In this document: positions 28,188 to 57,655 of the stretch, one piece after another
Layout: the number at the start of each line of letters is the position of its first letter
Numbering within the stretch: the first letter of the stretch is position 1
Source: Escherichia phage 310Ecol104PP
DNA length: 64,000 nt
Direction: 5' to 3' (one strand)
Sequence record: OR062946.1
Translations under genes and position numbers: made by a program
Notes under the pieces: model-generated
What the model was told of the DNA's origin: nothing
The model's input: only the letters and a program-made list of their open reading frames with translations
Databases searched by the model: none

Positions 28188-29606
28188 TTATGGATAGGTA
28201 TAGATGATACCAGTTTCTAAAGCAGTTTTATGAATGATGTATCCATTACGCGATTCTTGAACATCAACTTCTGGATAGTCTTTCATCATCTTCTGAAGAG
28301 TGTAACGATGCAGGTAGTATTTACTATCTGGATCTTCAGTTTTCCAATCTTTACCTTCTTCAGTCATTTTTTGGATTTCATCCATAACCCACCAACCGCA
28401 CCAGATGTAAGCTGAGCTACGGTGTGGAAGAGGATGAACATAAGGTAATTCACCTTCTGGTTCTGGAGCAACTTTATCAGTTACCTGAACTTGACCTGTT
28501 GTTTTAACTGTTTTGCTATCATAATCAGTTGCTGTAACGACAGCAGTAACTTCAATAGTTTGACTTCCAACAGATGAAGTATCAACGGTGTATACATTAG
28601 TTGACCCTTCTACAGGAGAAGAATCTTTCTTCCATGAATATTCAATTTGCGCTTCTTCTGGAGCACCAGTAACATTAGCAGTAAATGTAGCCGAAGCATC
28701 TTGTTGAACGTTAATAGAAGGAGGAGTCAATGTAACCTGTGGATTCATTGTCTTCTTATTAACCGTTAATGATACTTCATTCGAAGTAACTTCCTTTTCA
28801 TTGTAATTTTCTGCAGTTACTTGGGCTACGCATTTAATTCTTTTTACTCCACTTGTAGTTGGAGTATAGCTAAATGTAGAGTTAGTTTCTCCACTAATTT
28901 GAGAATCATCTACATACCATTTATATGTAGCAGACGCTCCATCAGGTTGAGAAACTAAAGCAGCAGTAAATTGAACCGGGGTTCCAATTACTCCTGCTGG
29001 AGGACTATCAGGAGTTACTGCCAAAGTAGTTGTCTGCTCCTTTTTATTAACAGTCAGTGATACTTCATTAGAAGTAACGCTTAGTGCATCATAATCTGTC
29101 GCGGTTACTTGAGCTACACACTTAATTTTTTTAACTCCGCTTGTGGCAGGAGTGTAATTGAATGTAGCGCTAGTTGCTTCGTCCACAGGAGAACCGTCAA
29201 CGTACCATTGATACGTAGCAGATGCACCTGATGGCTGTGAAGCTAAAGCGGCAGTAAATTCAATAGCTGTTCCGATTACTCCAGCATCAGGGCTACCAGG
29301 AGTTACGGCTAAAGTAGTTGTTTGTGTCTTATTTTGAATTGTGATAGTTGTACTAATTTCAGCTGTTTCGGGACTACTATCGGCAACTTGATTTGTTGCA
29401 ACTACTTTAATAGTCTTTTGACCGGCAGGTCCTTTTAGTACATAACTAAAAGTTGCTGACGTTTCTTCCTGTTGAACATTATCTACAGTCCAAGCATATG
29501 TAATAGGTCCATCTCCAGTTTGACCACTGGGTGTAGCAGTAAACTGCTGAGTCTGATCTATAACTCCAGTAGGTGTTTTAGGAGTTATATCAACTGTAAA
29601 AGTCAT
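28188..29606 (-). CDS. hoc: Hoc outer capsid decoration protein, 472 aa, with an extra Ig-like domain
   Basis: N-terminus MTFTVDITPKTPTGVID and C-terminal capsid-binding region; two adjacent ~96-aa repeats in the middle; hairpin terminator just downstream. Confidence 0.9.
   Translation of the reverse strand: MTFTVDITPKTPTGVIDQTQQFTATPSGQTGDGPITYAWTVDNVQQEETSATFSYVLKGPAGQKTIKVVATNQVADSSPETAEISTTITIQNKTQTTTLAVTPGSPDAGVIGTAIEFTAALASQPSGASATYQWYVDGSPVDEATSATFNYTPATSGVKKIKCVAQVTATDYDALSVTSNEVSLTVNKKEQTTTLAVTPDSPPAGVIGTPVQFTAALVSQPDGASATYKWYVDDSQISGETNSTFSYTPTTSGVKRIKCVAQVTAENYNEKEVTSNEVSLTVNKKTMNPQVTLTPPSINVQQDASATFTANVTGAPEEAQIEYSWKKDSSPVEGSTNVYTVDTSSVGSQTIEVTAVVTATDYDSKTVKTTGQVQVTDKVAPEPEGELPYVHPLPHRSSAYIWCGWWVMDEIQKMTEEGKDWKTEDPDSKYYLHRYTLQKMMKDYPEVDVQESRNGYIIHKTALETGIIYTYP
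28755..29330 (-). repeat. tandem duplication (2 x ~288 bp) inside hoc encoding two adjacent Ig-like domains
   Basis: Residues ~93-188 and ~189-284 align end to end (KTQTTTLAVTPGSPDAGVIGT... vs KEQTTTLAVTPDSPPAGVIGT...). Confidence 0.8.
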
Positions 29607-40386: not shown

Positions 40387-40418
40387 ATGGGGACCTTTCG
40401 GTCCCCATATTTTTATTT
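40387..40418 (+). terminator. intrinsic terminator after gene 54
   Basis: ATGGGGACC-TTTC-GGTCCCCAT followed by ATTTTTATTT. Confidence 0.8.
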
Positions 40419-40703
40419 ACGGAATGAAATAAAAGCAGCAACTGAAGCAACTAAACTGTCTTCAATATAAACCTCAATTTTTACCGGAGCTTCTGACTCA
40501 AATTTACCTGTTACTACACCTTGGAAAATACTTTCAGTCTGTTCTGGCTTTAAAAAATTTTCAGAAGGAAAAATTCCGAACTTTTTATCTGTTCCAAAAA
40601 TTTTGATAAATTCATCGTAAACTGCTTCATTAAAAGCATTATCAGCAGGAATAACGCCTTCAACTACAAGTTCTTGACCTAAAAAGCGCAAAGAAGATTT
40701 CAT
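40413..40703 (-). CDS. hypothetical protein (T4 alt.-3-like position)
   Basis: 96 aa ORF with GAGGAA Shine-Dalgarno; early-type promoter cassette upstream. Confidence 0.65.
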   Translation of the reverse strand: MKSSLRFLGQELVVEGVIPADNAFNEAVYDEFIKIFGTDKKFGIFPSENFLKPEQTESIFQGVVTGKFESEAPVKIEVYIEDSLVASVAAFISFRK

Positions 40704-40709
40704 TTTGTG

Positions 40710-40765
40710 TTCCTCATGTTATGTCAGTAAGACTACTATAACACAACACGAGGGACTTGTAAACT
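40710..40765 (-). promoter_or_regulatory. early promoter/leader cassette, copy A, upstream of the alt.-3-like ORF
   Basis: Minus-strand GTTTAC - 18 nt - TATAGT then leader with GAGGAA; about 51 of 53 nt identical to copy B. Confidence 0.5.
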
Positions 40766-42821
40766 ACATCTTGAACTTTTTAGACATTCCGTTGATGTTA
40801 ATCAAAGAAGCCAAGATTTGAGAAACTTCGTTTTCCTCTTCTTTTGATTCTTCTACAAGGAATTGATTAAATCCAGCCATTGGACGAACTTCACCAGTTT
40901 CCATTAAATGGTCGCCATCATATACTGATTCTTCTAATTGTTCAGAAGGAGGAACGATTGTACCTTCGATTAGATACTTGTTATAAGCAGTTTCTTTCAT
41001 AAAGTACGTACTTACTTTATTAATCTTCAGTAAAATTCCACGCGGTAGAATAACTTCAGCTTCTGATGGAAATCCTGATAAATGACCTGGAACGATAACT
41101 TTGATTCGCTCAGCTCCTTTAATTACCATACCCACGCTAGTTTCAGCATCTTCAATGGCATATGTAGAATGACTACCCATATGCATTAAATCTTCTGCAT
41201 CAACGGAACCTTCTCCTTCGCCAGAAAATACTGCGCCGGAATCATCTAGAGCCATATAGTTTTTACCATGCTCACCGAAGATATTTGGTTTAAGTGATGT
41301 CGATACGAAGTTCTTGAAATAGAACATTTTGTTTTCAATGTTATGACGCAAAGTTTTAAAGGTAACTTCTTGTCCACGGTAAAGTGTAGTTCCTGGAGGA
41401 AGAACTGATCCTTTGGCAAAGGCAGAATCCAACGTCTCGATGTGCTTAATAGCTCGTTCCATATATTCTTCACGGGTAGAATCTGGTTTACCCAAAAGGA
41501 ACGAGTTCATTTCAACATATGAATCTGCACAATAATCTTCAATTACATCAGATTCAGCTTGGGTTAATCCTTTTGGAGTTACTTCGGTGCTTGCGTATTC
41601 ATATGCCTGGGCAGCAGATTCATTAATCAATTTATAAATGCCATTCATGACAAATTGAATAATAGCTGTCTTTTCATCTGGCGTAGCTTTAGAACCTTTA
41701 ACTAAATCATTAATAATTTTCTTAATAACATCAAAGCTATTAGAAATATTAATGTCAGCAAGATCGCTTAAAATTTTATCAGTTTTATAATCAAAGAATT
41801 CTTTATTCTTTAAATATTCTTGAGAACCTTGATATGTTATATCGCTCTGCAACTTGATAGATGGATCACGTAAACGTGCATGGGCTAATGCAATATGATT
41901 TCGGAAGTTTTCTAGTTCGTAATCGCTAGATTTAAAACGAGAAGCACTTCTCATACCACCAATAGCTCCTTTGCTGAAGTTTGAACCAATCTGAATAACG
42001 CCAGAGTTCATTGGTCCTTCTGCTTTATACACCGGAACTTTAGATTCAAACTCTTGATATTTCTTAGCAGCGAAGCTATCACCATGAAGTGAAGCATCGA
42101 CAGTAGAATATTGAGCTTGTGCTGCTAATCGACGACTAATTTTAGTTTTCTGAATAACAGCTTGATCAGTGCGCTTATCATTTTCTAAAGCAATAGAAGC
42201 AGCAACAGCGACAGCTTTAGGAACAGCATTACCTGTTTTAACGTCTACATAAACATCACCAACCTTTGATTCAACTTTTGTGAATAACTCAGTTGAAATA
42301 GGAGGTACACCTGGAATGTCTTCTAAATTGGCATTTTTACGGTAAACCATAATATATGCATATTTCTTATCATAGTCCCAGATTTCCTTTAAGAGAACAT
42401 ATCGACCTGCTCCTTTAGTACGTACTAAACGGTCAGCAATAACTTGCATTTGACGAGCTGCGCCATTTGTTTTACTCTTTAGTACGCGGAATAGGCATGC
42501 GTCGATTTTATACTGTTTCATTGTTTGAAGAGCAGTATCAAAAACAGCATTAATGACGCCAATTGGATTTCCACCCAAGTTTCTAAGCTTAACCAGCGAT
42601 AATTTCTCGTTGACACCTATCATTACGATATGCATCATTTTATCGCCCGGCTTAACGTTTTTATTTGTATCACCGCCAGAGGTGTATGTACAAAATCTAA
42701 ATCCAGGAAGCACGCTTTCTTCACCGGCTTGAATAGCAAAAATTTGAGGTATTTTATGCTTAGGATTTAAGTTAACAACCGGCGCCGAAGCGCCGTCAAA
42801 TAATTCTGTAATAAGTTCCAT
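40764..42821 (-). CDS. Alt-family ADP-ribosyltransferase paralog (685 aa), probable packaged internal protein
   Basis: N-terminus MELITELFDG; C-terminal R (TTLYRGQ), STS (FVSTSL) and EAE (SEAEVILPRG) motifs. Confidence 0.85.
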   Translation of the reverse strand: MELITELFDGASAPVVNLNPKHKIPQIFAIQAGEESVLPGFRFCTYTSGGDTNKNVKPGDKMMHIVMIGVNEKLSLVKLRNLGGNPIGVINAVFDTALQTMKQYKIDACLFRVLKSKTNGAARQMQVIADRLVRTKGAGRYVLLKEIWDYDKKYAYIMVYRKNANLEDIPGVPPISTELFTKVESKVGDVYVDVKTGNAVPKAVAVAASIALENDKRTDQAVIQKTKISRRLAAQAQYSTVDASLHGDSFAAKKYQEFESKVPVYKAEGPMNSGVIQIGSNFSKGAIGGMRSASRFKSSDYELENFRNHIALAHARLRDPSIKLQSDITYQGSQEYLKNKEFFDYKTDKILSDLADINISNSFDVIKKIINDLVKGSKATPDEKTAIIQFVMNGIYKLINESAAQAYEYASTEVTPKGLTQAESDVIEDYCADSYVEMNSFLLGKPDSTREEYMERAIKHIETLDSAFAKGSVLPPGTTLYRGQEVTFKTLRHNIENKMFYFKNFVSTSLKPNIFGEHGKNYMALDDSGAVFSGEGEGSVDAEDLMHMGSHSTYAIEDAETSVGMVIKGAERIKVIVPGHLSGFPSEAEVILPRGILLKINKVSTYFMKETAYNKYLIEGTIVPPSEQLEESVYDGDHLMETGEVRPMAGFNQFLVEESKEEENEVSQILASLININGMSKKFKM

Positions 42822-42824
42822 GAT

Positions 42825-44921
42825 TTATCCTTGAACGAACTTGTAAGGCATGTTTGTAATATCTATGCAAGACGCAATAATTCCAAGAGATGATTCTACT
42901 TTCTGTTTAATATTTGATGAAACAAATGATGCAAAGTCAACTCTGTCTTCTATTTCAATATCACCTGTCATTGCAACTACTTCGCCGGTTTCCATTAAAT
43001 GGTCTCCGTCATAGATTACCGATTCAGTGAGTTCTTCTGTGGTCATAACTTCAGCTTGAATGAGTTTTGTATTATTAGACGTGGTTCCGTCATTATTAGA
43101 AGCATCAGTTATTTTATTAACTTTAACCATCAATCCGCGCGGTAGAATAACTTCAGCTTCTGTTGCTATTCCGAGACTTCCTGGATATACAACATTAACT
43201 TTATGAGCTCCATCAATTGCCCATCCTATTTGAACTTTAACGTATTCAGGATTTTCTTTATACGCTCTTATTTCGTTTGGATTAATAGTTATTCCTTCTT
43301 CATTTTTATCAACCGTTAATTCGTTACGAGCTTCTGGTTCTAAAAGACCAATACCAGCATGTGTAATTCCAAAACGCCCAAAAATGATAGGAGTTAAAGA
43401 AGTAGATACAAAATTTCTGAAATAGAACACTTTATTTTTAACTAGTGCTTCGTATATAGGAGCAGTCATACTTTGAGCACGATAAACTGTGATGCCTTCC
43501 GGTATGCGGTCACCATTTTCAAAAGCTGAATCTAAGTTATTTATAGCAGATTCAATTTCTTTTTCACTCATTACATCATATCGTTCTGGATTGTAACGAC
43601 CTAAAAGAAGATTATTAATGTCAGTATATCCTGAACCACAATACTCTCTAATGCCGCGCTTTTGTGATGGAGTATATTTAGAACCATCACGGGCAATAGT
43701 AATATCAATCATTGGACCTGCACCAATTCCAGAAAAACTATAAATCATTCTTTTGAGGAATTTAGTTTTTGCTGCGTTCCAGGAATTTTTAGTCATTTCT
43801 TCCCAGACTTCATCTGGCTGCCCTTTACGAGTTTTATTATGTTTATCAAGCCAATTATCTTTATATTCTTCAAAGAGTTGATTAACAGCTGCTGCGTATT
43901 TCTCTAAACATTTTATTGAAGTAGTTGGTTCATTTTTAATCGCATTAAGAATTACATCTTTAATTTTTTCAGAAACTTCATTAACCTCACTTTTTGAAAA
44001 GAATTTATAGTCATAATGAAGTTCATTCGCAGTTCCTTCGGCAATAATTTTTGCTGCCTTAGTTTTAGAAGCTAATGAATTAATTCCAAGCTTCATTTCT
44101 TCTGCTTCGGGAATTAAAGGAGCGGTAGCAGGTTTATTGAAATTAGCTGCGGTAGATTCATACTTCTGGAATAATTCACTTTCAAATCTAGAAGATTCCA
44201 ATGATTGACTTTGCGCAATTGCTCTACGGGAAATTTTAACTTTAACGATTACAGCTTGGTCAGAACGTTTATCATTTTCTTGTGCAATAGATGCTGCAAT
44301 TGCCTCATTTTTAGTTACTTGAGCTCCAGTATCTTTATTGATATAAACATCGCCGACTTTCGATTCAACTTTAGTAAAGAGCTCGGTACTAATTTCCGGA
44401 ACTCCTGGAATGTCTTCTAGTGATACATTTTTGCGATGTATAAGAATATATGCATACTTTTTATCATAATCCCAGAGTTCCTTAAGAAGGACGTATCTGC
44501 CACCTGAACGACTACGGATAAGTCTATCAGCAATAACTTGAATTTGTCGAGCTTGACCAGCGGTTTTAGACTTAAGAATACGAAGCATACAAGCATCAAT
44601 TTTATACTGACGCATTGTTTGCATTGCAACAGTAAAAACTGAATTGATATAATTAATTGGGCTTGGACCGAGACCTTTTAATTTAGCAATTGAACCTTTG
44701 GCAGTTAATGTAAAAGGAACAATATGCATCATTTTATCGCCCATCTTTAAATCGCGATTAGTATCACCTCCAGATGTATAGGTGCATAAACGAAAGCCTG
44801 GTTGTTCAATTGCATCATCAACACGAACTGAAAAAATTTGCGGTATTTTCTTCTTTGGATTTAAGTTTGTAATCGGAAGAGTAGTATCTTCGTCAAATAA
44901 TTCTGTAATAAGTTCCATCAT
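42825..44921 (-). CDS. alt: Alt ADP-ribosyltransferase (698 aa), packaged internal protein
   Basis: N-terminus MMELITELFDED; motifs R (ITVYRAQ), STS (FVSTSL), EAE (TEAEVILPRG); TATAAATA-type late promoter on the minus strand about 20 nt upstream. Confidence 0.8.
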   Translation of the reverse strand: MMELITELFDEDTTLPITNLNPKKKIPQIFSVRVDDAIEQPGFRLCTYTSGGDTNRDLKMGDKMMHIVPFTLTAKGSIAKLKGLGPSPINYINSVFTVAMQTMRQYKIDACMLRILKSKTAGQARQIQVIADRLIRSRSGGRYVLLKELWDYDKKYAYILIHRKNVSLEDIPGVPEISTELFTKVESKVGDVYINKDTGAQVTKNEAIAASIAQENDKRSDQAVIVKVKISRRAIAQSQSLESSRFESELFQKYESTAANFNKPATAPLIPEAEEMKLGINSLASKTKAAKIIAEGTANELHYDYKFFSKSEVNEVSEKIKDVILNAIKNEPTTSIKCLEKYAAAVNQLFEEYKDNWLDKHNKTRKGQPDEVWEEMTKNSWNAAKTKFLKRMIYSFSGIGAGPMIDITIARDGSKYTPSQKRGIREYCGSGYTDINNLLLGRYNPERYDVMSEKEIESAINNLDSAFENGDRIPEGITVYRAQSMTAPIYEALVKNKVFYFRNFVSTSLTPIIFGRFGITHAGIGLLEPEARNELTVDKNEEGITINPNEIRAYKENPEYVKVQIGWAIDGAHKVNVVYPGSLGIATEAEVILPRGLMVKVNKITDASNNDGTTSNNTKLIQAEVMTTEELTESVIYDGDHLMETGEVVAMTGDIEIEDRVDFASFVSSNIKQKVESSLGIIASCIDITNMPYKFVQG

Positions 44922-48924: not shown

Positions 48925-49290
48925 TTAAATATCAAATTCGTTAAGAACTACATCAAAGATTGCTTCAAGATGCTCAGGTTTAGCTCTGTTACTCAGAATA
49001 TGACGAATCCAAGTTTTAACCAGAAGCTTGCGATTAACGCCATTCCAGCAAGGATGAGTCCCTAAATCGCGTTGACGAAAATCATCATCCAATGCGATTT
49101 TAAAAGAAGAACCTTCTTTCGTGATTGAAACCGTGATGCCATTTTCAAATCGCATATAAACGTAGTTAGGAGTCATATACTGTTCAATTTCGCATACTGA
49201 TCCATTTTGATGTTTCCAAAGGCAGATAGTATCAATAGAACCTGCAATACCGTTAGAAACATATTTACGTTCAAAGTTGATGTAATTCAT
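48925..49290 (-). CDS. hypothetical protein
   Basis: 121 aa ORF in the same array. Confidence 0.6.
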   Translation of the reverse strand: MNYINFERKYVSNGIAGSIDTICLWKHQNGSVCEIEQYMTPNYVYMRFENGITVSITKEGSSFKIALDDDFRQRDLGTHPCWNGVNRKLLVKTWIRHILSNRAKPEHLEAIFDVVLNEFDI

Positions 49291-49317
49291 TTTTATTCTC
49301 CGAGATGTTTAATTGCG

Positions 49318-49347
49318 GTACAGGTATATAATATCATATCCTGTACC
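49318..49347. other. perfect 8-bp inverted repeat GGTACAGG / CCTGTACC around a 14-nt A+T loop
   Basis: Read directly; intergenic between two minus-strand ORFs. Confidence 0.6.
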
Positions 49348-49360
49348 AAAGTAAACTATT

Positions 49361-49729
49361 TTATGCAACTTTAATCCAATTATCTAAATTTAATTCACCT
49401 TTGGCTTTCATTTTTTCAATCAAGAGGTCAGCGGTAATACGACCATTTTGATACCACGTAACATCTTCAGAGTAACCAGTTTCTTTATCTTCATAAGTCT
49501 CACAGCGAATTTTACCAAGAATCAAAGTTTTTAATTCGTATGTATCTCCAGTAAAAAAGTTAGTTAACATTATTTTCCAAGAGAAATCATCAGAAGGACC
49601 TTCAGGAGTCATGCAACCTACAAATTCAAATTGTTCTTTGTATAAGTGCCACTGAAGTTCTTTAGTTTCGATAGCTTTATAGCCGTCGTGGTCTTTACCT
49701 TTGATGTATGAGTTAAGATTGATTTTCAT
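49361..49729 (-). CDS. hypothetical protein
   Basis: 122 aa ORF; AAGGAG Shine-Dalgarno; GTTTAC-N18-TAGTAT promoter upstream. Confidence 0.65.
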   Translation of the reverse strand: MKINLNSYIKGKDHDGYKAIETKELQWHLYKEQFEFVGCMTPEGPSDDFSWKIMLTNFFTGDTYELKTLILGKIRCETYEDKETGYSEDVTWYQNGRITADLLIEKMKAKGELNLDNWIKVA

Positions 49730-49756
49730 TTTATTCTCCTTTGTTTGTGTAAGATA

Positions 49757-49786
49757 ATACTATCACAAAGGAGCCATACTGTAAAC
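49757..49786 (-). promoter_or_regulatory. early-type promoter for the 122-aa ORF
   Basis: Minus-strand GTTTAC - 18 nt - TAGTAT. Confidence 0.45.
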
Positions 49787-52460: not shown

Positions 52461-52693
52461 AGTACGCCATACACCCTTTGTGCTTCAACTAATCCATCAA
52501 AATCCAGTTTGAGATGTGTTATTTGGTCACCATCACTTGGATTCACAATTACTAATACTGAACGAGGAGTTTCGGTAATAACACGAACCGATGTTTCAGG
52601 AAATCGTTCAGAAACTTTATTTACCAATTCCTGAGCAAATAGTTTAACTTTTTCTTGGAATTCTTTAACAGTAATTGGTTTTTCACTTAGCAT
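52457..52693 (-). CDS. hypothetical protein
   Basis: 78 aa ORF. Confidence 0.55.
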   Translation of the reverse strand: MLSEKPITVKEFQEKVKLFAQELVNKVSERFPETSVRVITETPRSVLVIVNPSDGDQITHLKLDFDGLVEAQRVYGVL

Positions 52694-52755
52694 TTCAATT
52701 TCCTCATTTATTTTGGTAGAGCTATAATATCACAACTCTACCGTAAAGTAAACTG

Positions 52756-56009: not shown

Positions 56010-56065
56010 AGTCCTCATGTTATGTCAGTAAGACTACTGTAACACATCACGAGGGACTTGTAAAC
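56010..56065 (-). promoter_or_regulatory. early promoter/leader cassette, copy B, upstream of alc
   Basis: Minus-strand GTTTAC - 18 nt - TACAGT and GAGGA leader; near-identical to copy A. Confidence 0.5.
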
Positions 56066-56068
56066 AGC

Positions 56069-57655
<1,587 letters not shown>

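Follow-up and report, generated by a model that had tools for sequence, protein, structure and literature searches.

The genes alt.-3 and alc of Escherichia phage 310Ecol104PP are each preceded by an almost identical 54-nt cassette, in which an early promoter of the T4 type overlaps an inverted repeat whose 3' arm includes the Shine-Dalgarno (SD) sequence. The window analysed here is a stretch of 64,000 nt of this phage (sequence record OR062946.1). We think it fairly probable that the early promoter is nested in a hairpin that occludes the SD and limits expression to the early period, and that the alc cassette was copied to alt.-3. The relevant features of the window are listed below.

40711-40764, minus strand: cassette copy 1, 5' of alt.-3, with -35 GTTTAC at 40764-40759, TGn at 40743-40741 and -10 TATAGT at 40740-40735.
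40753-40712, minus strand: hairpin of copy 1, with 5' arm 40753-40740, 3' arm 40725-40712 and SD GAGG at 40715-40712.
56012-56065, minus strand: cassette copy 2, 5' of alc, with -35 GTTTAC at 56065-56060 and -10 TACAGT at 56041-56036.
56054-56013, minus strand: hairpin of copy 2, with SD GAGG at 56016-56013.
56047 and 56039: positions at which copy 2 differs from copy 1 (A for T in the 5' arm, and C for T at the third base of the -10, respectively).
40413-40703, minus strand: alt.-3 ORF (96 aa), with copy 1 in front; 100% identical to Alt.-3 of phage ime09.
55513-56007, minus strand: alc ORF (164 aa), inhibitor of host transcription, with copy 2 in front.
40764-42821, minus strand: second alt paralogue ('Alt2'), an ADP-ribosyltransferase of 685 aa; its TAG stop codon (40766-40764) gives the G of the -35 of copy 1.
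56069-57229, minus strand: rnlA (RNA ligase 1), with its stop codon 3 nt before the -35 of copy 2.
49727-49786, minus strand: third cassette, of the same design and different sequence, with a GTTTAC promoter, 5' of the orthologue of gene 30.8.
52691-52753, minus strand: early promoter at the site equivalent to T4 Pe133295, between cd.2 and cd.3, with GGTAGAG/CTCTACC flanking the -10.
40387-40408, no strand assigned: GC-rich hairpin between the convergent genes 54 and alt.-3, terminator-like on both strands in the terminator scan.

A pattern search allowing up to three mismatches found two matches only, at 40712-40764 (no mismatches) and 56013-56065 (two mismatches), both on the plus strand as written. 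The expected number of matches by chance is zero, none being found in 100 dinucleotide shuffles, which rules out a chance repeat. Extension with a repeat finder gives a repeat of 54 nt (40711-40764 and 56012-56065) with 52 of the 54 positions identical (96%); the two copies are in direct orientation and 15,301 nt apart. The preliminary description, which had reported two copies in the same orientation with 51 of 53 positions identical, was correct in its coordinates and identity. Its assignment of a GTTTAC -35, a -10 and an SD to both copies was correct as well; in the promoter consensus scan they read as TTTACA-17-TATAGT and TTTACA-17-TACAGT, each with TG before the -10. It had taken them for T4-type early promoter-plus-leader cassettes resembling the promoter-early stem-loops (PeSLs), and the defining parts of a PeSL are indeed present.

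In gene sense (the genes of this region are all on the minus strand), the cassette reads GTTTAC-AAGTCCCTCGTG[T/A]TGTGT-TA[T/C]AGT-AGTCTTACTGACATAACATGAGGA. Both copies end with the SD GAGGA, and the start codon follows 4 to 8 nt further on: the ATG of alt.-3 lies 8 nt past copy 1 (ACACAAAATG) and that of alc 4 nt past copy 2 (CTTTATG). In alignments with relatives, the similarity between the two sites starts at the G of GTTTAC and stops sharply past GAGGA. Each cassette is contained in a stop-to-start gap of 57-60 bp, where GTTTAC adjoins the stop codon of the upstream gene, at a distance of 0 nt for alt2 and 3 nt for rnlA. The DNA 5' of the cassettes is coding; A-runs are present (AAAAAGTTCAAGATGTA; AAAAATTATAAAAAATTT), without a separate AT-rich spacer.

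The window belongs to a Tequatrovirus. Its alt.-3 region is 99.9% identical to that of phage AdolfPortmann, whereas no record exceeds 97.2% identity to its alc region. The Alc protein of this phage is a divergent allele, with no more than 92.9% protein identity among the 1,131 phage records that have an alc homologue; the best DNA matches to the alc region run 12 nt longer than the window.

Phage T4 has both copies, with one mismatch between them. BLAST analysis of 50,697 phage records placed the 54-mer in 499 records at 997 places, a set of records that practically coincides with the roughly 500 matched by the flanking genes. With essentially two copies per genome in about 500 records, the pair is a fixed genus feature at two syntenic sites and not a dispersed multi-copy element. 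A mobile element of the multi-copy type is ruled out on the same grounds, with exactly two copies per genome at fixed positions. An exact-word scan of IMG/VR returned nine stretches only. The whole window matched no Rfam family at gathering thresholds, the GenBank and RefSeq records of T4 have no promoter features at either cassette site, and our literature search found no genome-wide maps of T4 transcription start sites.

Folding of the read-through RNA gives an 18-bp hairpin, composed of 14 bp and 4 bp around a 2-nt bulge and including three G-U pairs. The alt.-3 copy folds with a free energy of -23.0 kcal/mol (z -4.0) and the alc copy with one of -21.4 kcal/mol (z -3.4); the alc copy of the window has an A-A mismatch within the stem. 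The promoter spacer forms the 5' arm (CCUCGUGUUGUGUU) and the leader, with the SD at its end, forms the 3' arm (GACAUAACAUGAGG); the -10 lies near the apex. A leader RNA begun about 7 nt past the -10 retains the 3' arm alone and is unstructured (-2.5 and -5.0 kcal/mol for alt.-3 and alc, z about 0). The computed cost of opening the segment from the SD to the AUG is 13.3 (alt.-3) and 9.8 kcal/mol (alc) in read-through RNA, compared with 2.4 and 1.8 kcal/mol in RNA from the cassette's own promoter. These opening energies replaced the mean probability of being unpaired, which is misleading for the alt.-3 leader through weak pairing with the coding region. The computation thus predicts that the SD is hidden in transcripts derived from upstream and free in those started at the cassette's own promoter.

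The sites were then compared across Tevenvirinae. The 75-80 nt 5' of alc and alt.-3 were gathered from eight annotated genomes representing seven genera, and about 40 IMG/VR genomes were added, with alc and alt.-3 sites paired by contig. The alt.-3 sites were located through the neighbouring gene 54, the Alt.-3 protein being too poorly conserved for a locus search. In nearly all genomes a GTTTAC promoter adjoins the upstream stop codon at both sites. The exceptions are three related genomes of 170 kb (L030, L031 and L056; IMG/VR 2706795401, 2706795408 and 2706795394), in which alc has no promoter cassette. There, the SD of alc lies at the end of an apparent upstream ORF (translational coupling), and the promoter of alt.-3 is retained.

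The spacer at the alc site almost always opens with an arm complementary to the SD region, and the sequence of the arm varies by lineage. The 5' and 3' arms are as follows.

T4: CCTCGTGTT / AACATGAGG.
Marfa: CCTCGTTTGTT / AACAAACGAGG.
Karamvirus and Moonvirus: TCTCCATTTGGTT / AACCAAATGGAGA.
Kanagawavirus: CTCCATTTCGTT / AACGAAATGGAG.
Dhakavirus: TCTCCTCAT / ATGAGGAGA.
Others: TCCTCATTTTGTT / AACAAAATGAGGA; AACCTCTCATTTT / AAAATGAGAGGTT; CCTCTCGTTTTTG / CAAAAACGAGAGG.

A covariance model built from 12 cassettes recovers the alc sites of other genera as well as both Tequatrovirus copies. Its alignment was used in place of a plain MAFFT alignment of the alc cassettes, in which the 3' arms were out of register. 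In this model-fitted alignment 85.8 per cent of the pairing cells can pair, compared with 63 per cent in shuffles and 34-46 per cent with a slid partner. For the 28 distinct sense-strand alc rows the value is 94.2 per cent (67 per cent in shuffles, 40-50 per cent in slides), and double changes are found at 13 of the 13 pairs. G-U and A-C cells are about equally frequent in the stems of these rows (8 versus 7), so the pairs do not tell on which strand, RNA or DNA, selection has acted.

Since the covariation alignment was made to follow the structure in the model, helix formation was also tested without any alignment. A contiguous helix of at least 9 nt between spacer and leader is present in 27 of the 33 distinct alc-site cassettes and absent from the other six. 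The 3' arm lies over the SD in 24 of these 27 helices (22 flagged by the script and two with a GGGG SD), and in three more the hairpin ends just short of it. The median helix is 11 nt for arms of the same genome versus 6 nt for arms mixed between genomes, the 95th percentile of the shuffles being 8. The promoter-in-hairpin design recurs 5' of alc in most of the sampled Tevenvirinae lineages, and these sequence comparisons indicate that its structure is kept by compensatory change across genera.

The same hairpin might be read in another way, which we consider unlikely: it would serve mainly as an attenuator of transcription, or insulator, by halting or pausing polymerases from the upstream gene, and the pairing with the SD would be a by-product of fitting all the elements into an intergenic region of 60 bp. 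PeSL stem-loops have been proposed to act in this way, and a stem-loop of RB49 reduced lacZ expression like a strong terminator (Arbiol et al. 2010, PMC2839356). The early promoters at 52753, 49356, L035 and L041 also have hairpins that flank the -10 and do not touch the SD. However, no U-tract is found 3' of the hairpin in either copy (AACACAAAAUG and ACUUUAUGAUG) or at the alc sites of other genera, which have A-rich tails. The terminator scan, which flags true terminators nearby (the hairpin between gene 54 and alt.-3, and one 5' of the 30.8 promoter), passes over the cassettes. These two observations make an intrinsic terminator improbable, and the position of the SD under the 3' arm in the large majority of the alc-site helices argues further against a role confined to attenuation.

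In the cassette of the 30.8 orthologue, the spacer arm CTCCTTTGT pairs with ACAAAGGAG (the SD), and the covariance model also matches this site in T4, Marfa, EnC15, Melville and Kosakonia phage 305. A terminator hairpin (49836-49815, AAGGACTCC-TTCG-GGAGTCCTT followed by a T-run) lies 28 nt before this GTTTAC promoter. In the promoter at 52691-52753 the 3' arm of the inverted repeat ends before the SD. The same holds for a GTTTAC promoter at 49288-49356 (minus strand), where GGTACAGG/CCTGTACC flank the -10 and the 3' arm falls short of the SD. There are at least four GTTTAC promoters in the window besides the pair, three of them with a hairpin over the -10, so that such a hairpin looks like a general habit of the early promoters of this region (five of the six found). 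The terminator-like hairpin at 40387-40408 would close the alt.-3 transcription unit.

Outside this region, a 472-aa ORF (28188-29606, minus strand) carries a unit of 288 nt twice in tandem at 28752-29327; the two units are 73% identical and encode two repeats of 96 aa.

At the alt.-3 site, the SD-pairing hairpin is found in Tequatrovirus only. In the other genera the spacer-leader helices of alt.-3 are of 4-7 nt, which is the background level, without an anti-SD arm. There alt.-3 does without an occluded SD, and gating is therefore dispensable at this site. As the hairpin design belongs to alc and occurs at alt.-3 in Tequatrovirus alone, the simplest explanation is that the alc cassette was copied over the alt.-3 promoter, and the alt.-3 cassette of Tequatrovirus probably derives from that of alc through an ancestral copying event. 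We infer both the direction and the single occurrence of this event; our confidence in the direction from alc to alt.-3 is moderate and is based on a structural character, the anti-SD arm. Overall identity does not decide the donor site: for the T4 cassette, the best foreign match has an identity of 0.76 among alc cassettes and of 0.73 among alt.-3 cassettes.

The alt.-3 promoters outside Tequatrovirus (L013, L014, L016-L018 and L065-L103) have a short palindrome within the spacer, for example CCACA-AGGA-TGTGG, GCAC-AAGGAA-GTGC or ACATCC-ATGGAA-GGATGT. The stems vary and complementarity is kept; the palindrome might form a small hairpin in RNA or serve to bind a protein.

The identity between the alc and alt.-3 cassettes of one genome is 0.56-0.73 in most genomes. 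It reaches 0.84-0.91 in Tequatrovirus, 0.87 in a chimeric Dhakavirus-like genome and 0.79 in moha. The Dhakavirus-like genome (IMG/VR 2706795356_000001; alc cassette at L042:347-407, alt.-3 cassette at L080:1976-2037) carries an alc cassette whose 5' half is of the Dhakavirus alc type. The 3' 32 nt (ACCTTACACAAACATGAGGAGAACATTATGAA), from the end of the -10 to ATGAA, are those of its own alt.-3 leader, unlike in other Dhakaviruses. The alc cassettes of Mosigvirus moha and of a related contig are nearest to alt.-3 cassettes, their own coming first at 0.81; in Mosigvirus mar005P1 the alc cassette is quite different and the alc gene is divergent. These comparisons suggest that cassette sequence moved between the alc and alt.-3 promoters more than once with unchanged gene order, and exchanges appear to have taken place in Tequatrovirus, in one Dhakavirus-like genome and in some Mosigviruses.

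A more general proposal would be that a 'reverse', early-only gate at alc exists throughout Tevenvirinae and is maintained by compensatory change, with repeated copying in either direction between alc and alt.-3, 13-16 kb apart, in different genera. We put this forward tentatively and recognize that it may well prove too broad. If true, it would be a case of promoter-cassette gene conversion without any gene rearrangement.

The history of the pair within Tequatrovirus was examined with eight alc and eight alt.-3 copies. The average number of differences per 54 nt is 1.3 and 1.75 between orthologues and 1.6 between paralogues. Every variant in these 16 copies is confined to one copy, none being common to both copies of the same genome, and T27C is inherited orthologously at alc only. 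Conservation at the alc site is 0.976 for the cassette and 0.965 for the flanking coding DNA. Of the six stem substitutions, G16A (twice), G40A and C15U maintain pairing or make it better, and T19A (in the alc copy of the window) and C12A break it. A single event in the ancestor and slow drift of the ordinary kind since then account for these data, and neither ongoing conversion nor unusual constraint is required.

The 15.3-kb interval between the copies contains genes 30 (DNA ligase), 31, rIII, cd and pseT, and its deletion would also remove alc. The preliminary description had proposed that the pair could be a substrate for deletion or inversion. Direct repeats cannot invert the interval between them, and both copies are retained in essentially every one of the 499 records. 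Among the relatives no rearrangement has an endpoint inside the cassette; the comparison of gene content revealed a single difference beside it. In T4, the alt.-1/alt.-2 remnant results from a 1.69-kb deletion inside the second alt paralogue (40784-42473 in the window), which ends 19 nt upstream of the -35 with an overlap of about 9 nt at the junction. This endpoint lies outside the cassette, which therefore did not mediate the origin of the remnant. The link to modular shuffling, also part of the preliminary description, agrees with the comparative signs of exchange between the alc and alt.-3 sites in three genera; it does not extend to a multi-copy family, the cassette being restricted to two fixed syntenic sites. 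The initial interpretation was thus partly supported: right in kind, incomplete in that the hairpin had not been seen, and wrong on inversion.

The window carries two full-length alt paralogues in tandem on the minus strand (40764-42821, 685 aa, and 42825-44921, 698 aa), separated by 3 nt. T4 retains only an N-terminal remnant of the second paralogue.

It is quite improbable, in our opinion, that the near-identity of the copies results from frequent, ongoing gene conversion and that the cassette is an active recombination module, a hotspot for shuffling of the PeSL type, for mini-circles or for deletion. Short homologies do suffice for T4 recombination, and the PeSL pairs of RB49 and phi1 recombine. 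The 32 nt shared by the alc and alt.-3 leaders of the Dhakavirus-like genome seem to reflect an independent exchange, and some Mosigviruses, in which the alc cassette is nearest to the genome's own alt.-3 cassette (0.81), may offer a parallel. Against this, the variants in the 16 Tequatrovirus copies are private to one copy, divergence is the same between paralogues as between orthologues, and T27C has been passed on orthologously at alc only. No genome has a rearrangement ending in the cassette, and excision products would be dead ends because the interval holds genes 30 and 31.

We likewise give little credence to the idea that identity is kept by co-regulation through a sequence-specific regulator, for which Alt-modified RNA polymerase, RegA and RegB are candidates. 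RegB has GGAG as its target, and the SD of the cassette is GAGG, not GGAG. Between orthologues, the cassette (0.97-0.98) is not better conserved than the coding DNA flanking alc (0.965), so no extra constraint is visible, and the cassettes of the two sites are clearly different in other genera (0.56-0.73 identical). These points outweigh those in favour, namely that alc and alt.-3 are both early in T4 at the RNA and protein levels, that one copy lies directly 3' of alt, and that early promoters depend on bases beyond the -35, TGn and -10 for their stimulation by Alt (Hinton 2010, PMC2988021).

We infer both the use of the promoters and the translational gating, and the reading that we prefer, a promoter nested in an SD-occluding hairpin, would operate as follows. 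Each cassette would act as an early promoter of the T4 type with a short leader, comprising GTTTAC, a spacer of 17/18 bp, a TGn-extended -10 and a leader ending with the SD. Polymerase starting about 7 nt past the -10 would produce an mRNA without the 5' arm, the SD would be open, and alc and alt.-3 would be translated. RNA derived from upstream (alt/alt2 or denA-rnlA) would contain both arms, fold into the hairpin and hide the SD; the read-through RNA entering alt.-3 would come from the Alt2 gene and that entering alc from rnlA. The synthesis of Alc and Alt.-3 would be confined in this way to the immediate-early period and insulated from the upstream unit. The alc cassette would be the older one, copied over the resident alt.-3 promoter in an ancestor of Tequatrovirus, with exchange points in the blocks common to both promoters (GTTTACA and ATGAGGA), and the two copies would have drifted independently since then.

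In T4 omics data, alc, alt.-3 and 30.8 have early RNA and early protein, alt has middle RNA and late protein, and alt.-1 and alt.-2 have middle RNA; rnlA has early RNA and late protein, and denA is middle at the RNA level and late at the protein level (PMC9697503). This timing is consistent with the gating model without proving it.

The results account for the nearly complete identity of promoter and leader in two unrelated early genes of T4, and they define a compact regulatory module of 54 nt composed of promoter, hairpin and ribosome-binding site. If the gating is real, alc, alt.-3 and probably 30.8 would join the T4 genes with promoter-dependent translation, in the opposite temporal sense (early-only). 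The comparative data also illustrate how, in nature, regulatory cassettes can pass between remote sites of a genome under a constant gene order, and support the idea of modular shuffling by PeSLs. In practical terms, the cassette could be a ready-made, insulated early expression module for the engineering of T4-type phages, and a direct repeat of 54 bp is a possible trap in recombineering and assembly. The findings mainly tidy a detail of a very well studied phage.

Hairpins that occlude the SD of the genes e, soc, 49 and I-TevI are an accepted mechanism in T4 (Uzan and Miller 2010, PMC3014915). The likeness lies in a promoter situated within a hairpin or next to it, with the SD or AUG bound up in the structure, so that only transcripts from the proximal promoter are translated. 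In those genes the internal promoter is late (or middle) and early read-through RNA is silenced, whereas the reverse is predicted here, with an early promoter and middle or late read-through. Neither alc nor alt.-3 is among the hairpin examples in that review (PMC3014915). In the literature accessible to us we did not find the covarying SD-occluding hairpin of alc, its spread to alt.-3 or the repeated exchange between the two sites, three points of moderate interest to T4 specialists.

As promoters, the two copies resemble the T4 Pe promoters, whose -35, TGn and -10 are recognized by the host sigma-70 polymerase and which are active right after infection (Hinton 2010, PMC2988021); the downstream genes alc and alt.-3 are early in the T4 omics data. 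There is no difference in kind from the Pe promoters, and what is special is that spacer and leader are common to two promoters almost base for base.

The closest relatives in design are the PeSLs. Arbiol et al. (2010, PMC2839356) showed that these elements are active as promoters, that one of their stem-loops behaves like a terminator, and that PeSLs recombine with crossovers 3' of the -10 and 5' of the ATG; the stem-loop may overlap the -10, as the present hairpin does, or lie between it and the -35. The class has since been extended to the T4/PST pair (Comeau et al. 2014, PMC4122927). The order of elements is the same, with an upstream stop codon, a sigma-70-like early promoter, a stem-loop at one of these positions, and an SD and start codon. 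Repetition within the genome, location in an early region rich in small non-essential ORFs, and exchange points that appear to lie 3' of the -10 and 5' of the ATG, as the chimeric cassette of L042 indicates, are further common traits. The cassette described here differs in having only two near-identical copies at fixed syntenic sites, without an associated indel or mini-circle. Its stem is not of the GGGG/CCCC type, reaches the SD and is not followed by a U-tract, and the published function of PeSLs is termination or attenuation, not occlusion of the SD. With a sigma-70-like early promoter in a same-strand gap, a stable stem-loop, and an SD and start codon at its 3' end, the cassette is a member of the PeSL class. 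It exists in T4 and is an ordinary but well-built element of this class.
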